Below the pieces are notes generated by a model that searched no databases, was not told the origin of the DNA, and was given only the letters and a program-made list of their open reading frames with translations. The translations under genes were made by a program, and so were the position numbers. 64,000 nucleotides of DNA, from assembly GCA_963726195.1 (NCBI GenBank), contig CAVSBO010000008.1, forward strand, positions 64,001-128,000. The letters run 5' to 3'. The DNA comes from Candidatus Thorarchaeota archaeon. Lineage in GTDB: Archaea > Asgardarchaeota > Thorarchaeia > Thorarchaeales > Thorarchaeaceae. This document shows, piece after piece, positions 33,702 to 63,240 of the stretch; position 1 is the stretch's first letter; every line of letters starts with the position of its first letter.

Positions 33702-33931
33702 GTCAACTACCCGCGACTAAAGTCGCAGGCTTGCCACTGCGATCCGTGGTAGGAACTCTACCTCGTCATTTCGCGCGACGTTTGGGCGGTTGACTTTCGC
33801 CCTCCCGACCACAGCATTGCCACGGTCGGACACGATCCTTCACTTTTCAAGCTCACATTTAAACTCGTATATCCCGCGGCGTCGTTTTCTCCCCCGACTG
33901 AAGTCGGGCGGTCTCCTCGCCGCGTTTCTAT
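33702..33931 (-). mobile_element. Non-autonomous IS200/IS605 mini-element (left end + promoter + omega-RNA), copy 1
   Basis: Left-end hairpin CCCGACTTCAGTCGGG; right end GCCTGCGACTTTAGTCGCGGGTAGTTGAC; preceded by TTCAT; ~90% identical to 63012-63240. Confidence 0.85.
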
Positions 33932-42135: not shown

Positions 42136-42586
42136 CTAGGAATCCCATGTGATTCCAAGCATTCTCTCGGCCGTTTCCCACAACCTTCGTTGCAGGTCCA
42201 AATCATAGGACAGCTCGGACGAGCGGCTCTCTTCCTTCTTTGAGAAATACTTGCCGCTGACACCCTCGATGTCTGGCGACGATGCAAGAAGAACAGAAGT
42301 CTCTGCCCCCTTCTCTGGAGGGATTTGCATTGGACGTACCATCTTGAACATGACACTGCTTCGGGTTCCTGCGTTGCCTCCCAGATTGGTTGCAACGAAA
42401 CCCGGATGAACGACGTTGGCAGTTACACCAGTGTTCTCCAGACGGCGAGCTAGTTCGTAAGTGAACATGAGAACCATTAGCTTGGCATTCTGATACGCTG
42501 TCATTCCTTTGTAGTGCTTCGTGCTCTGAAGATTGTCGAAGTCGATCACTCCATTCTTGTGAAGTCCTGAGGTTATGTTGATAACC
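42136..42586 (-). pseudogene. Short-chain dehydrogenase/reductase, 3' half (interrupted by mobile element)
   Basis: VINITSGLH, YQNAK (YxxxK), VVHPGFVAT. Confidence 0.9.
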
Positions 42587-42588
42587 GT

Positions 42589-44627
42589 TCATTGTAAGTT
42601 GGACAAAGTTGGACATATTTCCTTTGTCCTCCCAGGAACGGCACTGGGACTCTGGACATGAATTATGTTTCGTGCAGCATTGATGTCCGCATGAATGTGT
42701 GAGTCGCAGTTTGGACAGTAGAAGTACTCTCCACCTTTCTGTTCCACCTTTGACCTGCAACTATCGACACGTATGCCTTTCTGCCTGCACACATGGCAGG
42801 TCTGGCTGGTGTAGGCGGGGTTCACTGTCCACACACTGTACGGGCTATGACCCAGTGACTCGCGCATGTACCGGACAGTGTCGATAACCTCTCCCCACAG
42901 GTTGGTGGAGAGTCTCCACGACAGGGCTCCCTGACCAGCCGGGGTCTGGTAGTTCCTCAAGTCTTCGAAGTAAACGGTCTTCACACTGTGCTCTTCGCAG
43001 AACCAAACAGTGTGCGAAGCAACCAACCGGGAAACTTCACGGTCGAGACGACGCACCTTCTGCCACACAGCATCCTGATGTCTCTCTTTTTTTAGCAAGA
43101 ACACAGGATGCGACAGCCCCGGCCGTTTCTTGTCCCAGTTGTTCCTTCTCCTGTCCACTTCGGATCTGAGCAGCGAGGCCTGTTCTCTAAGCCTCTCCCT
43201 TTTCTCCAACAGATACTCCACTCTAAGCAGCTCGTCCAGGTAATCACCATCCTCTTGAACTGAAAGGGCAACGGGGACTCTCACACCCCTATCGACACCG
43301 GCTAGTGCAGTGTACTCCTTTTCTCCTAAGACCTGCAGCAGAGTCTTTCTGTCAGGGGAAAGAAAGGGGATTTGGAGTGTGACGCGATGACCTCTCATGA
43401 GCAGGCGAGGTGGGGCACTCCTCCTCAAGGACTTCAAACTCTTCATATCGGCCTCGAGCCTCGCCACCTCTTCGGGGTCGGATTCTCTCTTCTGTCTGAG
43501 GCATGAGAGCGCGTAGGCCAAGTGCTGGACTTGAATGGTGTTCATGAGCTGTTGGTGTTGGTCCTCAAGCTTCGCTGCCCTGAACCTCAGCCTGTGTTGC
43601 ACGAGCAACTCTTCCCTCCTGCTCGACTGCCTCGGCTCTGTTACGGCCGTCTCCCGCAGCACGAGGCAGCCAGTTCAGAAATCTGAAGGTCAGAGTCTGA
43701 GTACCATATGGAGAACCGTCGCTGGGTGTGCCATCGAGTCCCGGGAGGGAGCTTGATGTGGAGGAGAACCTCATTCTCCCTATCGTTGTCGAGTGTGAAC
43801 CAGTAACCCTGTCCCACACTGTTCTCTGTCGATGCCGAGTAGTCAAGGCTCCACTTTCTGAGCTGAGGGACTGTAAAGGGATACCCCTCCTTGTGCCAGC
43901 ATTGTATCCGCTCAGCTACGAGCGAGGTCACTTCCCCGAACTCGGGCGAGTTGGCCTGCAGGTGGTCACCGACCCGCTTCCTCTGCGCAGACCTCGACCC
44001 AAGGGGCTGAGCAAGTGAGGAGAGAATGTACTCGTCAAGAGCCCTCCTGATCTGTTTCAGAGCACCCAAGGCATAGTGATATCCTGTACCGTTGTCCTTT
44101 GCACGCTCACAGGAGTCTCTCACCTTTCGTATCAGGTCAGCTGGAATGTATCTGTTCCTGAGCAAACGGAGTTGGTCGGCAAGGGAAGCATCCAGAAGAG
44201 AAACTGCAGATTCCACAAGCCTTCTTCGAGTGTGGTCAGCATGAACCGTCCTGGCAGCCTGTTCCAGTACGTCCCTATGAAGCCTTTCGAACACAAGCTG
44301 TCTGAACTCTTCGTTATGCTGGTAACAGAGGTCACGCTCCTTCCTGAGGAGCGTGTAGCCATAACCCCTGTACTTCGTCAGCTCTTCGCCCAACCTCTTT
44401 GCTCTTGCAGGGTGAGAATAGACTCGCTCAAGTGCGAGGTTGACCGCCTTCACATACCTGTCCAAGTAAGTACCTATGGTAGCCAGCCCAAGATCCCCGA
44501 CCTTTGTGCCAAAGGTCCTGCATAATGTATGCAGTCTTTCTTGGGATGATATGGATGCGTTTGAGGGGAAGGTTCTCCTACTGAAGGCCGGGTCTGGCTG
44601 CTTTCCAAGACCTTTGTGCGAGGGCAT
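42589..44627 (-). CDS. Large TnpB/Cas12f-like RuvC nuclease, ~680 aa (frameshifts near 43745 and 43590)
   Basis: AGVDRG (RuvC-I), YFEDL (RuvC-II), TSQTCHVC...CPNC, HADINAARNI (RuvC-III). Confidence 0.88.
42596..42615 (+). repeat. Tandem subterminal motif (AAGTTGGACA)x2
   Basis: Read directly from the sequence. Confidence 0.9.
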
Positions 44628-44933
44628 GTAATCTTGGGAACACAGGGTGAAGGACTCGACAAGATATCTCACGTGACCACAATTATATATGCCGCCCATT
44701 GTTGTATGCATGCTCTGCGTCCGGGGGTGGCGCTGGACGGGTCGTTTCACGGCAGTTCCTCAACATCTCTGTGTATTGCGGTCCTCTTAAGCGCCACCAA
44801 TTATATATATCATGGAAGTTTCCCAACTGAGAACTTATGCATACTATATTTGCCACTTTTGACTGTCATATCGCTTGTATAATTAGCCATATTGTCACAG
44901 CATCCTTATAAATAGCTGAGGTCCACCAGTACC

Positions 44934-47900
44934 ATGCTCAAGGGCGAGACCGATGTCAGACCAAGTGAGGTTTTGAGAGATTCATTGTCAATAGGCCTGG
45001 CCGCCATAGCCAGACTGACAAGGTGTCGCTCCAATTCCACTGTCAGGAAGTACGTCGACTCGATAGCCCAGTGCTGGTCCGATGCATCTGCCAAGCTGGA
45101 AAACGTCCTTGCCACGACACAGTACGGAGCATCTGCGATCGTGTCATCAATCGCAGCCATAGAGCACAGTCTTCGGCACTCCATCTCAAGTTCCTCTGGC
45201 AGAGCACGAAACGCTACGGAAACCGCGAATTCAAACGGGTTTACGATTGGAGACAGGGCTCTGTTGGTCCGCTTAACGGGTTTCTGAACTACCTTGGAGC
45301 AAGGCTCAGAGACCTTGCCGTTACCCGCTATTCATTTCCAACACCCCAGCACTATCAGGTGAGAGAGTACCCTGACGGCTCCAAGAAGGTTCTCGCAGCG
45401 TCCGTTGCATCCAAGTTACCCATTGACGGCTCAGTAAAGAGATACTGGAAGGCAGGATACCCAGGGACATCGAGAGCCCCGCGGGTGCTGCTAGCACACC
45501 CAACTCTTCCGGAAATGGACTTCGTGGACATGCTCCGGGGGCATCTGGTCGAGCTCTCTCGTCAGCTGTTTATCTACAACGTGCCCCGTGATGATGCCCA
45601 TAGATACATCCGACTCTTGGTTGCTCGGTTAACGCCATTCCTCGACTGGGTCTACACAGGAGGAAAGGCAGGTCGCAAGAACTTCTGTCCTGATGGTGAC
45701 AGAGAACTCAGGCACCTTGTCCTCGAAATACGGTCCACTTACGGCAGAAGAGCTGGACAGGGTCGTAGGACATCTGAGATGGCTCAGCAAGAGGGAACTC
45801 CGAGTGTCAGTATCGCTACGCTCACAGAGAAAGCCATTGGACTACTCCAGAGCACCCAAGATCCTGAGATTCGGAAGGCATGCGAGCGCATACTTGACAG
45901 TATAAACCAAGAGGTTCTCACCGAGAATGACGTGATGCGGCTCAGGGAGCACATAGTCGCTCTAATTCAACAGGAGGGCAATGACTGGCACAGGGTGCTT
46001 CTATCAGACCTGCATCACTGTTCTCTCATCGATGCTGTTCTGAGCGGCGACTCGATGCTTGAGACTGTCTCCGATAGACAGTTCTTAGCCGAGGTTCTCA
46101 ATGAAAGGTTCTGAAGACCAAGGGCAGGCTGATATTGTCCTCTTTCTGAGGAGAAAAGCGGGACTACGAGTAGTCTGGACTCCCGTGATGGTTCTGGAGA
46201 TAAAGACGAGAAGCTCCTTCGATTTTGCGCTCTACGGCCTAAGACCACGAACCAAGATTATGAACGCGTTTGTGCCAGCCCTTTGCCCTTGGAAAGTGTT
46301 CTCTTTCAGAGAAAGAGTGGGAGAGCATCGTTTCGTCAGAACCGCCGCAGAGCAACCTGCGACAGTTGGAGCTCTATGAACGAGGACTGATAGAGGAGTA
46401 CCGACGACTGGTTCCTGAGGATCACACGCTGCCGTCTCTCTGTGGAAAGGTGTCGTAGTGGTCGACAGCTTACAGACATACAAAGAGACCTTCGAAGCCT
46501 TCTCTGCTCTCACTCAGAACCTGATGCAGCTTCGTCACTTGCCATCAGGAAAAGGAAGATGGTCTTCGCTGAGCATGAAAGACCTCTTTGACAGGAGTCC
46601 GAGAGTCGCATTGCTGATGTCACCTTCCGAGGGGCCATCCCACTTGCTCAGTCGGACCACATTTCCAGACTCCATCTTGATAGAGAACCCGTTCAAGGAC
46701 AGTACCGAACACCAGCGGAATCTGACGCTCTACATACCTGTCGCATCAGTCAACATCTGGAGGAAGAGCCGCTGCATGGCACTCCAAGAACTGGCATTTG
46801 CTCAACCATATCCAAGAACTGCGCGAAAGAGACCGGGATGTTGGAGGTGTGGTCTGGCTGGATTTAACCAGCTCTCTTCCTGAAGGGTTTCGCAGACGTG
46901 CTTTCAGGCTGGAGAACACCAGGAGGAAGAAAGGGCGGCTTCTGGAACACTTGCAGCGATTCTGGATGAAGTCGATTTTCATGACATGGGGAATATGGTG
47001 CGAGAATACCTTGCAGGCAGGGCTGATGCAGACATAGCACGGGAGCTGACTGGTATCAGGCAATCACGGCAGCCCGGCTCCCGATTCATCGTCGTCATTG
47101 ATGGATGGAGCGAACTCCGCCAAATGGTCCATGGCTCTGAAAGGCAGAGACTCAGAGCCCTTGAACAGCTTCTCGTCGAGAAGATTGTCGCAAAAGAGAA
47201 CGAGGTCATATGGGTTGACAGTGGAATCCAGCACACGAAGATGAACTTGATTTACCAGAGACCATGCGTACGTCCGCTGGAGGCAGATTCGCCTCGCAGA
47301 CTTCGTCTCGGGGAGATATTATGGAACATGCCTTTGCCGCCAAAGGGATTCGGATGGCAGGCACCATGGTTTGACGATAAGAGGGTGATTATTCAGGACA
47401 CTGCCACTTCAGCACCTCTCTGGTCAACGGTAATTGATGTGCCGATGTTAAGACATTGGCCGAGGAAGTTCAGAGGTCTATCGAACAGGGAAGTGACAAT
47501 CCAGGAATATGAAGTCAGGTCCAGTCTTCTGACAGACGAAGACATGTACGGTCGGTCTGTCCGGCTTTCTTCTATCCAAGCCGATATGCAGCAGCTTTCT
47601 GAAGAGACAATCATGGACATTCAAGAGAAAGCGATGAGTCTCGCTCCGAGCCTACTCAGATCAAGAAACAGGGAAGAACAACAAGTCATACCAGACACCG
47701 AACAGTCGTCGATGACCCTGCTTTCCGTTATGGTTACATGTGCCTCGCCTCCGACCCTTAGTGATAGACTGCATCTCCAGCCCTGTCATCCTCCTCCTGA
47801 GCCCGGGCGGTCCAAGCTGAGATATGTGGACCCGGAGCGGATAACACGTGAGTGGCAGAACAGAATCCTAAAGAAGGACGAGGAAGATAGCAAGAGAAGT

Positions 47901-50058
47901 CGCATGACCCGGCGGCCTCCGCTCTATGCTGTGACCATGTCTCAGAGAATCGACTCCGACACAACTCGAAGACGTGAAGTCAGACGACTAATGCATGCGG
48001 CCGACTATCTCAAGCACCGACTCGACCCCGGCGAAGATCTGGAAGTTCTGTTCGAAGACATAGTTGCTTGCTGTCGTTCCACGCTTGAAGGCCCAAGAAA
48101 TGGCCAGTTGTATCTGAAGACTTTGTTGGAAGTCCATGACATGATTCTTGAGAACACGAGACGGCGAGGTGCATGGCTTTTGATAGAGCAAGAGAGGAAC
48201 ACCCTCGGAGATGTTCTGAGCCTTGAGAACCGTGCCGCGCTTCAACAAGCGATGTCTCGCAACCCCGAGCTGCTGACGCTATATGGCAACAATCTGTTCC
48301 TTGCTGTAATCGTTGCCATCACGAGAATCATGGATGACCCCGTTGATCTGGGGATACTCCCACTATGGAGAGCAGTTGCAGAATGGGAGCTCTATCAGAT
48401 GGGTTTCAAGCCCGCAGAGAGGCCGCCATACATGGCTCGTTCCAGATACGACTTCGCGTCAATCTATGGCAACCTGCTGTTCCGGACAAGGAACCTCGTA
48501 TCTCAGAAACAGAAATCACAGGCCGCACCGAAGAGGCCTCAGGCATATCAGTATAGAGAGGGGATACTTGTCGGTAAAGAGGGGTCGTCCTGCTGGCTCC
48601 TGTTCAAAGCGGATGATGGAAGGGTTGTATGCGGGTTGCTAGAGGACCCCGGTGGCAGGCTGGGCATAGGTTGGTATCGATGTTCTACCAATCCTGCGCA
48701 GATGTCTGAGGCTGCTGAGGACACTCTTCACGGGAGCAACGACGACATTCAGATGCACTTGGCCGTGACCACCGTGGGCAAATCCGAGATACTCTGGCAG
48801 CGGCACGAAGAAGGCACCGGTGGCTGGATGCTTCTGGGACGACTTGAGTATCAGATTAACGAACGAGAGGGAGTCGCAACCATACCGTGGCTGAAGACAT
48901 CAGAACCGGATTTGAAGACCTCGCTAGGCCTATCTGAGAGCATGCCCGTAGGTGTACCATCCTCAGAGTCAACGTCGCGGCTACTAACCCCTCTCAAGAA
49001 AATAGCAGAGTGGAATGTCGAAGTCAAGAGTGTGAAGTGTGAGGTCTCATTGGACACTAGGAAAAGAGCGTATGTCATTACATTTCGCAATCCTGAACTG
49101 CCCAGCCAGTGAAGTCTACGAGAGTTTTGAGAGCGCAGACACCCTTGAAATCGTGTCCGTACTGAGGTCGCCCGTGACAGGAAAACAACAGGTGATCACA
49201 AAGGAAGGAGCAGTCCTCACTTGGGACCATCTGAAGGATATCGACTATGGGGTCGCAACAGTTCCAACTCGAGATGGTGAGGCAGATATCAGCCTGTCAT
49301 TCCTCAGACCTCTTGTCCATCGCAGTCGGTTCTTTGCCGGAGATTATGTGGTTCCATACAATGCGACTCAGCTGTTCACTCTTAGAGAGGGACCGCCTGT
49401 GACGATCAGAGTCCTCCCGTGGGACAGAAAACAAAGTGACTATGACCTCAGACGACTCAGGGTCACCATTGATGGACTCAACGAGGACTCTGGCTTGAAG
49501 GGTCTCGAGGATAGAATGATGAAAGTCCGGGATGTCGCTCTGCTGACGGACTGCGAGCACTCATCGATGTCAGGTCAGGTCTGGTACATCCCGTACGAGT
49601 TAACGTCAGAAAGGTGGTCGGGCTTAAGTCTCCTGAGGACATATCAGATTCCCGACTTGTGGAGCTGACTTTCGGAGTTGGAGGAGGAGAGCCATGATTC
49701 AGATGAGGAGTCAGAGTCTTACTCAGACGAGAAGCAAGAGAAGAGTTCCAAAGCGGAACAACGTCAAATGGTCTTCGTGTCAGCCAATGTAATCGTTGGC
49801 AGGCGAATGACTGTCATAGAGTATCATGTAGACGTGACGTTGGCTCCGGTCGATGATACAAAAAGCGTGGAGGTGGGAGAACTCATGACAGTGAGGTGGG
49901 AGAAAGGCCGTACTGCAGCCAACTATGAGGGCTTAGCAGAAGAGATTAGTGCGAATCTCAGGAAACAGGGCGTGGTGGAAGGCGACCATGGGGAAGCCAC
50001 CCGAGACATTATGGCTCTGCTGGAGAAGGCGGGCCTGCCGGTTCTGGAGGATGAGTAA
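44934..50058 (+). CDS. Giant hypothetical protein (~1700 aa if joined) with PD-(D/E)xK nuclease motifs; multiple frameshifts
   Basis: Chain of overlapping ORFs 44934-50058; GQADIVL...VLEIKT...QLELYE; IVVIDG; acidic stretch near the C-terminus. Confidence 0.65.
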
Positions 50059-50178
50059 GAGGAAATGGTTGCAGTGCCAGATACTGTGAACCCAAGGCTG
50101 GCAGCCGCGGTTCCTCGATCACGACTTAGCCTATCCGACATTGTTACAACACGCTGCAGCATTCATCCGCCTTGGATG

Positions 50179-50207
50179 TGTCCTCCATGTCCAAGATTGT
50201 CCAACTT
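50179..50207 (-). repeat. Subterminal motifs AAGTTGGACA/ATCTTGGACA/(G)GACA
   Basis: Inverted relative to the motifs at 42596-42615. Confidence 0.85.
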
Positions 50208-50220
50208 CTAGGCAGTGGAT

Positions 50221-50629
50221 ACCCTTGAAGGGGCGCTCGATTTCAAGATCGGCAGCAGTTCGTGTGTCAGGAGAAAAGGAGCAAGGTAGTTCACTGCCAA
50301 TGATCGTCGAAACCATCGACAGTTACCTCTCGCTTGTTGAAGACAGCGCCAGCATTGTTGTCTAGAACGTCAAGTCGCTCATGACTATTCTGAAACTCTT
50401 CTGCAAAACGACGTATCTCTTGCACAGAGGAGAGGTCACAAATCATGAGTTCGAGCGCATTGTTGCCGGTTGTCTTAGCGATTTCCGCACGCGCTTGTTC
50501 GCCTCGCTCTCTGTTTCTAACAACCATAACTACATTGGCATCCATCCGAGCCAATGCTCTGGCCGTCTCTTTTCCTATCCCTGAGTTGCTGCCGGTGACT
50601 ACGCAGACCTTGTTTGTCATGAGTCCCAT
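50221..50629 (-). pseudogene. Short-chain dehydrogenase/reductase, 5' half
   Basis: VTGSNSGIG, CDLSS, NNAG, then (after an indel) VNYLAPFLLTHELLPILKSSAPSR ending at the junction. Confidence 0.9.
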
Positions 50630-50794
50630 TCTCTCTGCTCCCAGTACACTACTCGTGTTCTGTTGGTGCTTCATGAAACCAATAACACGGATTATCAGAA
50701 TCGCAACGGATTTCCTATGATTCCGTTATTGTAGTATCGATAGGGCCTTTTCCGTGCGTCGAGAGGTTGCACTCATAATTGTCACTCTAATCCA

Positions 50795-52378
<1,584 letters not shown>

Positions 52379-63011: not shown

Positions 63012-63240
63012 AAAGAAGCGCCGCGAGAAGACCCCCAACTTCAGTCGGGGGAGGAAACGCCGCCACGGGATATACGAGTTTAAATGTGAGCTTGAGAAGT
63101 GAAATATCGTATCCGACCGTGGCAATGCTGTGGTCGGGAGGGCGCATGTCAACCGCCCGAATGTCGCGCGAAATGACGAGGTAGAGTTCCTACCGCGGAT
63201 CGCAGTGGCAAGCCTACGACTTTGGTCGCGGGTAGTTGGC
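63012..63240 (+). mobile_element. Non-autonomous IS200/IS605 mini-element (left end + promoter + omega-RNA), copy 2
   Basis: TTCAT at 63007-63011; left-end hairpin CCCCCAACTTCAGTCGGGGG; right end GCCTACGACTTTGGTCGCGGGTAGTTGGC. Confidence 0.85.

Follow-up and report, generated by a model that had tools for sequence, protein, structure and literature searches.

What kind of nuclease is encoded by an oversized TnpB-like gene that lies, broken over three reading frames, beside a giant gene in the middle of an SDR gene, and how did it come to be there? The question is raised by 64,000 nucleotides of Candidatus Thorarchaeota DNA (contig CAVSBO010000008.1, positions 64,001 to 128,000), the whole of which is called the window here and supplies all coordinates given without a contig name. 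The nuclease gene lies on an IS607-type element without a transposase gene, and the giant gene very probably encodes the protein called aCas1. The explanation considered likely, from the sequences and their comparison, is that TnpB is an enlarged homing nuclease of IS607 lineage on a non-autonomous element. TnpA would move the element in trans, TnpB with an RNA from the right end would cut the empty allele, and the occupied copy would serve as template for repair.

The element was inserted without a scar at a GG core in the SDR gene, and natural populations also contain the empty allele. Contigs from 3 runs of 2 studies join 42583 directly to 50221, skipping 7637 bases with an ambiguity of three letters (GGT), and no target duplication is seen at this joint, in which at most 3 bases are ambiguous. 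The flanks of the empty-allele contigs differ from the window at 0-3 positions, and the insertion is therefore recent. Many different flanks were found at the same right end in four public runs.

IS607 elements insert at GG without duplication (10.1101/2023.11.20.567912; PMC6188088), and short motifs repeated at their ends are bound by TnpA (PMC6188088). Insertion at GG without duplication and, at each end, two tandem motifs that are predicted binding sites are both seen at the window element, and a TnpA with the same ends is found in trans only. This TnpA, an IS607 recombinase (NF033518, 173.8 bits against a cut-off of 110), is encoded on a sister element (C3:854982-863120) whose ends are the same. 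These ends are also used by simple elements of 2.6-3 kb (L019, L036) that carry TnpA and TnpB but no aCas1. Compared with known members of the group (CboIStron, 10.1101/2023.11.20.567912; IS607/IS1535, PMC6188088; ISFba1 TnpB, 8iaz), the family shares the GG core, scarless insertion, repeated end motifs, a serine recombinase with an N-terminal helix-turn-helix, a TnpB stop codon at the element end and, by prediction, a GGG-type transposon-adjacent motif (TAM) and a guide from the right flank. The differences are a TnpB of about 720 rather than about 400 residues, a 5-kb cargo gene and the lack of a recombinase in the window copy.

Three minus-strand frames (43641-44759, 43565-43915 and 42589-43674) form one open reading frame when two extra bases are skipped. 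An earlier note on this DNA had joined them into a protein of about 680 residues, and this join was reproduced (678 residues from an ATG at 44627). The oversized TnpB is thus real, but a start at a GTG at 44750, giving 719 residues, is probably correct. This is because the Met at 44627 is replaced by Thr in an intact twin, and because the first WED strand (residues 31-36, at least 90% conserved in the family alignment) lies upstream of 44627; the ATG start was rejected on these grounds. The twin is located on contig C16 of the same genome (G000:C16:26999-29167) as one 722-residue frame, in which 619 of 722 residues (86%) are identical to the window TnpB; the full element copy on C16 shares 87.6% of its nucleotides with the window element. 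Two separate genes, the finding that by the earlier note's own account would have counted against the join, were rejected, since the protein is encoded in a single reading frame both in C16 and in the homologs.

The RuvC D-E-D triad is invariant in 67 aligned homologs and the C4 zinc finger scores above the PF07282 cut-off. The catalytic motifs and the zinc ribbon are found where the earlier note had placed them. Its distances needed correction: about 485 residues, not about 400, precede RuvC-I, and the RuvC-III Asp codon is 100 nt, not about 80, from the element end. The tnpB stop codon ends 4 nt before the element end. The match to TnpB models is confined to residues 486-699, and the protein remains under every curated TnpB cut-off (NF040570, 61.2 bits against 100; the IS607 TnpB model, 28 bits against 350).

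The AlphaFold model of TnpB (pLDDT 75; low-confidence stretches at 1-29 and 45-88) contains a helical REC lobe (89-291), WED strands (319-361 and 451-465) interrupted by an 85-residue helical insertion (364-444), and RuvC from residue 484. The additional size therefore lies in the model before RuvC-I and not mainly after it. The extra 300 residues or so are predicted to consist of a flexible basic N-terminus, a REC lobe of about 200 residues and the WED insertion, and would probably enlarge the grip on guide and target DNA. The model has the TnpB/Cas12 fold. Its best match in the fold search was Cas12f (Z 17.4), followed by ISDra2 TnpB (8h1j, Z 14.2 over 351 residues), with ISFba1 TnpB and Fanzor2 (9b0l) both at Z 13.7. 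An ESM Atlas search returned generic TnpB clusters only.

A first scan of the genome contigs with a single protein as query gave no matches. The database search found 272 relatives, the best 120 of which have 602-759 residues, and nearly all of the named ones are from Thorarchaeota; more than 100 homologs of 600-760 residues are encoded by a single gene. Among 301 genomes of the phylum, the family is present in 37 of the 76 genomes of the window's Asgard family and in none of the 224 others. In a RuvC tree it forms its own clade (100/100) apart from other TnpBs, with a weak link (84/72) to TnpBs of 750-1100 residues; as this tree includes no Fanzor or named Cas12f, it gives no placement of the family relative to these. 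Of six outside relatives that were checked, four adjoin an IS607 serine recombinase, TnpBs of 769-790 residues among them, showing that large IS607 TnpBs are not confined to the window family. The expanded Asgard lineage and the IS607 ancestry suggested by the earlier note are both supported by these relatives, and the ancestry also by the ends shared with the IS607 recombinase. A distant relative of 1,104 residues (L151:2706-6020, P0265) has no recombinase called nearby.

Could this TnpB be a forerunner of Fanzors or a CRISPR effector of the Cas12f type, as the interest of the earlier note in Fanzor and Cas12 evolution implied? IS607 ancestry and an Asgard host would suit such a role, Cas12f structures are the best fold matches, and the Cas12f2 profile NF049972 was the second-best NCBIfam profile. 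Its score, however, was 48.5 bits against a cut-off of 450. The closest structures (AsCas12f1, 8dzj/7wju; Un1Cas12f1, 7c7l; Z 16-17 over about 375 residues) share the order WED-REC-WED-RuvC-zinc finger with the model, but the identity is 14-15%, about 300 residues are additional in TnpB, its predicted guide is transposon-encoded and no evidence of a CRISPR array or a tracrRNA was found. As the earlier note had reported, the window contains no array; none was found in 81 family loci, and the genome has a single match, one repeat on C3 at a great distance from all copies. The window TnpB, as modelled, is thus Cas12f-like by fold only. According to Yoon et al. 2023 (10.1101/2023.08.09.552727), pro-Fanzors occur mainly in cyanobacteria and have a DPG in RuvC-I together with a glutamate that precedes the zinc finger by six residues. 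The family shares the IS607 association, RuvC and zinc finger with pro-Fanzors and Fanzor2 (9b0l), but both defining signatures are absent: all 67 family members have D-R-G, and the glutamate is at the canonical position (E598, 56 residues before C654), with no Glu at -7. Fanzor2 also ranks below Cas12f in the fold search and equal to an ordinary TnpB, and the family has its own clade among TnpBs in the tree described above. Either identity is therefore regarded as extremely unlikely.

The right end of the element is conserved in about 80 loci and is predicted to contain the 3' part of a guide RNA scaffold. The hairpin seen in the earlier note (42630-42649) is real, as its stem is found in five compensatory versions among 78 ends. 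In the same ends, a loop base (C/T) covaries with the last element base (G/A), as expected of a pseudoknot (Fisher p 5e-4, with sequences that are not independent). No Rfam family was matched in the window. IS607 scaffolds end in GG, and an assayed IS607 TnpB uses a TGGG TAM (10.1101/2023.11.20.567912). The earlier note had taken the guide from the SDR flank, which still appears correct, but under the GG-ending rule 42584 becomes the first base of the predicted guide (TTATC...), one position earlier than in the note, and the junction is ambiguous over GGT. At the left side, BLAST located 10 left ends in the genome, each of them preceded by GGG, and A is located at -4 and -5 in 13 of 20 ends collected by a pattern that itself required GGG.

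About 17 gene-less mini-elements of 185-190 bp were also found in the genome, with both ends, a TATA-like box, the hairpins and the guide-RNA end. PATEs are copies that have lost all genes but keep the two ends and a guide scaffold, which is used in trans (Meers et al., PMC10055086). The Thorarchaeota mini-elements are similar in lacking genes and in having both ends and the scaffold; they differ in being IS607-type, in their size (185-188 bp), and in having a TATA-like box of archaeal type and, at the 5' side, a further hairpin that full elements lack. No second-site target in the genome was matched by any of the six guides compared. In the right flanks of L015, L021, L022, L031, L033 and L034 several guides look tRNA-like, and unrelated loci have similar guides. 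Targeting of tRNA genes as a rule of the family was rejected, as a tRNA was called within 200 nt of 4 of the 82 right ends.

Table 1. Positions in the window of the element, its genes and its predicted functional sites
Feature	Position	Strand	Evidence
IS607-type non-autonomous element, 7,637 bp; left end 50221, right end GG 42586-42585; no transposase gene inside	42585..50221	-	Empty-site joint; ends common to TnpA-bearing C3:854982-863120
5' half of split SDR gene, one base missing near 50306	50222..50674	-	PF00106, E 6e-19; base present in empty-allele contigs
3' half of split SDR gene, in frame with 5' half once the element is removed	42136..42584	-	PF00106, E 7e-8; empty-site joint
Left subterminal repeat	50187..50207	.	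Inverted pair I11
Right subterminal repeat (two short direct repeats), inverted relative to left; predicted TnpA binding sites	42596..42616	.	Inverted pair I11, 21 nt, 90%
Predicted TAM AAGGG (family consensus about AAGGG, GGG near-invariant)	50222..50226	-	Left-end flanks
Predicted guide, SDR sequence directly after right end	42565..42584	-	Empty-site flank and GG-ending scaffold rule (inferred)
Predicted 3' part of omega RNA scaffold, overlapping tnpB end; hairpins 42649-42630 and 42629-42601, predicted pseudoknot of first loop with last element bases	42585..42655	-	Fold z -1.7, weak alone; covariation
Oversized TnpB gene, 719 residues read through two +1 frameshifts	42589..44750	-	Twin identity, family alignment, AlphaFold model, fold searches
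Frameshift 1, one extra base, WED region	43740..43742	-	Base absent in C16 copy and related contigs of 3 runs
Frameshift 2, one extra base, in the helical WED insertion	43591..43592	-	Base absent in C16 copy and related contigs of 3 runs
RuvC-I Asp, D-R-G not DPG (GVDRG 43285-43299)	43291..43293	-	Invariant in 67 homologs
RuvC-II Glu, canonical position (FEDL 42958-42969), 56 residues before zinc finger	42964..42966	-	Family alignment
C4 zinc finger, CxxC ... CxxC	42706..42798	-	PF07282, E 1.2e-14
RuvC-III Asp (HADINAA from 42693 downward)	42685..42687	-	Family alignment
Divergent promoter region, two TATA-like boxes (44800-44810, 44905-44915), putative	44800..44915	.	Sequence
Giant aCas1-type gene, about 1,700 residues, 11 single-base indels in window copy, intact in C16	44934..50058	+	VIA-align, Foldseek, invariant residues

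The giant gene, which the earlier note had overlooked, is arranged head to head with tnpB and encodes 1,708 residues in the intact C16 copy. Searches of Pfam, NCBIfam and PDB sequences with this protein, alignments included, gave no match. In its structural model (pLDDT 85), residues 1-255 match the Cas1 catalytic domain (Z 11-12.9 in VIA-align, best 12.9 to 8flj and 4n06); this match covers the helical catalytic domain only, from about Cas1 residue 80 onward. The Cas1 catalytic residues E99, H189 and D199 are invariant in 75 homologs. Residues 387-481 contain invariant PD-(D/E)xK motifs of the RecB/Cas4 type; this domain is assigned from the motifs, and the fold lists for the whole model, filled by other domains, do not include it. 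Residues 590-900 have a RecA/Rad51 fold without a canonical Walker A (Z 11.6 to RAD51C-XRCC3), and no domain was assigned to the C-terminal part. aCas1 was reportedly described by Makarova et al. in the CRISPR J in 2020.

The protein is closely linked to TnpB. An adjacent TnpB was found at 52 of 59 aCas1 loci, and in 5 of the remaining 7 the contig breaks off at the locus; conversely, 26 of 33 long-TnpB loci carry aCas1. The neighbour belongs either to the window family or to an unrelated TnpB family of about 570 residues. The partner label changes at least 5 times on the aCas1 tree (a quick LG+G4 run with long-branch warnings), and two loci (L107 and L123) share 89% DNA identity from the promoter onward although their TnpBs differ. 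Judged from these sequences, aCas1 appears to have switched between the two unrelated families at least five times. TnpA is near 9 of 43 aCas1 loci with the window family vs none of 40 with the other. In 13 of 92 loci, the gene after aCas1 encodes a RadA/Rad51 paralog; the idea of a fixed module of TnpB, nuclease and RadA is weakened by this count and by the window element. Canonical cas1 and cas2 were not found in the genome (88.9% complete).

Several observations were made beside these loci. Unlike the window family, the TnpB family of about 570 residues (L086:1051-2742 and relatives) carries Gly where the canonical RuvC-II glutamate would be and a Glu that precedes the zinc finger by seven residues, which is the shifted-glutamate type; DPG is absent. 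A second aCas1 gene of the genome accompanies a TnpB of this family (G000:C16:216658-223305), and a tRNA-Asp-like gene is located about 250 nt behind that TnpB. A recurring family of 225-285-residue reading frames inside aCas1-TnpB loci (L027, L038, L113, L118, L125, L135, L137) has no Pfam or NCBIfam match. A 4.1-kb derivative (L004:6300-10500; G000:C8:55334-59493) retains both element ends and stubs of aCas1 and TnpB, with genes for an alpha/beta hydrolase and a BNR-repeat protein in its interior.

Two groups of Asgard aCas1-TnpB loci, Cas1H-Asgard-1 and -2, have been described by computation, with aCas1 as the likely transposase and a downstream GTTCACTCA motif (Altae-Tran et al. 2023, PMC10691335). 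That motif was found behind the 570-residue TnpBs that are paired with the same giant protein family (about 19 loci). Thus, the giant partner is very probably, by its sequence associations, the published aCas1. The motif was not found downstream of the window's 715-residue family, whose right ends are of another type, and the paper does not say that it holds for both groups. Common to the published loci and the window are the Asgard host, a TnpB beside a diverged Cas1 fusion (identified by structure match and conserved E/H/D residues) and end repeats; the 715-residue family differs in having no GTTCACTCA, its own right end, GG-ended elements with an IS607 recombinase, and no target duplication at the window. 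The giant partner ties the locus, which would work like the published ones, to this class. The other outcome that the earlier note had named as a refutation, nesting in a TnpB clade of this size that is already described, probably applies in part, and the family may be one of the two named groups. In L086-L141, a hypervariable region about 100 nt behind the 570-residue TnpB and before GTTCACTCA, which has been proposed as a possible spacer-like guide (PMC10691335), looks by eye complementary to the bases after the motif; the resulting hairpin, with the motif in its loop, is followed by GG-T, like an IS607 right end.

These data can be combined in the following scheme of homing. The element would have been inserted in the SDR gene, and would be excisable, by the serine recombinase supplied in trans by the C3 sister element with the same ends, as IS607 biochemistry suggests. 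Transcription across the right end may produce a guide RNA whose scaffold ends in GG and whose guide is the SDR flank, in agreement with the covariation. By analogy with TnpB biochemistry, the nuclease would cut the empty allele only, where AAGGG abuts the guide sequence, and repair from the occupied copy would restore or spread the element, as has been established for other TnpBs (PMC10055086). The 17 or so mini-elements, with their own TATA-like box, might supply guides for the same protein in trans. At the cut, the RecB-type nuclease of aCas1 may trim the ends, its RecA-fold domain may recruit a recombinase, and its Cas1 domain may act on branched DNA. This makes aCas1 a passenger that helps repair or homing, and not the transposase of the window insertion; it is the likeliest role of the protein but the least certain step, and it is put forward tentatively.

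Some findings weigh against this homing scheme, and several of them concern the state of the window copy. No contig of the exact copy in the public runs spans both frameshifts; related contigs without the two extra bases are only about 90% identical, and are therefore not the window copy. There are 13 single-base indels in 7.3 kb of the element, about 10 times the lower-bound background of the genome (Poisson 4e-9), so that the element may have decayed locally. If the frameshifts are real, the copy would be a dead pseudogene in which only the ends and guide RNA work and the C16 protein is used in trans; the C3 and C13 copies have one frameshift each, and non-autonomous copies can decay. This explanation is nevertheless the less probable one. 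Between window and C16, no premature stop occurs in 2,413 codons, and dN/dS is 0.20 for TnpB and 0.26 for the aCas1 gene. The SDR flank has a similar loss of one base that is not present in empty-allele contigs, and 65 of 363 host-gene matches in the assembly are frameshifted (0.19 per kb, a lower bound, with some genes counted twice), and a poly-T artefact of 1.5 kb is located close by. The two frameshifts are thus quite probably errors of long-read assembly. Poor polishing, which would be expected of a polymorphic insertion with partial read coverage, is their likeliest cause. The C16 twin itself lacks the terminal 30 bp or so of the left end and ends in GA, not GG, with both genes open (L001:2520-10172), so some copies are immobile yet intact; sequence comparison makes a domesticated copy possible. 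Contigs similar to this twin element are present in four public runs. The window element is also without the RadA paralog.

The remaining points against homing concern aCas1. If it were the integrase that moves the element in the manner of a casposon, as has been proposed (PMC10691335), the IS607 TnpA would be incidental; the invariant catalytic residues, the Cas1 fold, the subterminal inverted repeats and the 22 of 33 loci with aCas1 and no TnpA in view would agree with this. In an 8.6-kb element with TnpA, aCas1 and a long TnpB (L056:640-665 and right end), 13 bp including GG are common to the start of the left end and the right flank, the sole case among 20 two-ended elements, and casposases make target duplications of 13-14 bp (PMC8464041). 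The first bases of left ends also match their own right flank more than by chance (p 0.001). These two observations keep the idea alive, but it is improbable. At most 3 bases are duplicated at the window insertion, 19 of 20 two-ended elements share at most 4 bases beyond GG, the element has no family B polymerase gene, and the structural match is limited to the helical domain of Cas1. Elements without aCas1, mini-elements included, use the same ends. Given the duplications made by casposases, aCas1 has thus left no expected mark at this insertion. Cas1 and a Cas4-type nuclease form the spacer-acquisition pair of CRISPR systems, and together with the near-obligate linkage of aCas1 to some TnpB, the partner changes and the promoter-bearing guide cassettes, this might suggest a primitive adaptive system that captures new guides without an array. 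That is more improbable still, because the window guide is simply the SDR flank, none of the six guides compared matches a second site, no array, cas1 or cas2 was found, and the cassettes, which are bounded by a transposon end on either side, are accounted for as PATE-like mini-elements (PMC10055086). A broader proposal, which is rather unlikely but deserves more weight than the last two, is that aCas1 is no transposase but a self-contained processing enzyme (Cas1 domain, RecB-type nuclease and RecA fold) acting downstream of any TnpB cut, either driving homing or writing new guides. It would hence hop between unrelated TnpB elements, and the pair, a Cas12 ancestor and a Cas1 homolog, would form a two-component RNA-guided machine for cutting and repair without a CRISPR array.

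Elsewhere in the window no tRNA was found. A poly-T run of 1,531 nt followed by 47 C (50800-52378), located 600 nt from the element, yields spurious poly-F/K reading frames and is almost certainly an artefact of long-read assembly. A 205-nt inverted pair (33704-33908 and 63034-63238, 93% complementary, 29 kb apart) is possibly two copies of another small mobile element.

The aCas1-TnpB class was already known by computation; the exact empty site, the IS607 signature of insertion and the switching of partners by aCas1 are new. The window TnpB family has no bearing on the origin of Fanzors. The parts for a bench test of a predicted enlarged RNA-guided nuclease are now defined. They comprise the intact natural copy in C16 (G000:C16:26999-29167), a predicted scaffold that is short, a TAM of the GGG type and, as target, the naturally occurring empty site. 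The published reading takes aCas1 as the transposase of these elements, whereas the exact empty site in the window bears an IS607 signature; the locus makes the job of the invariant Cas1 active site accessible to testing.

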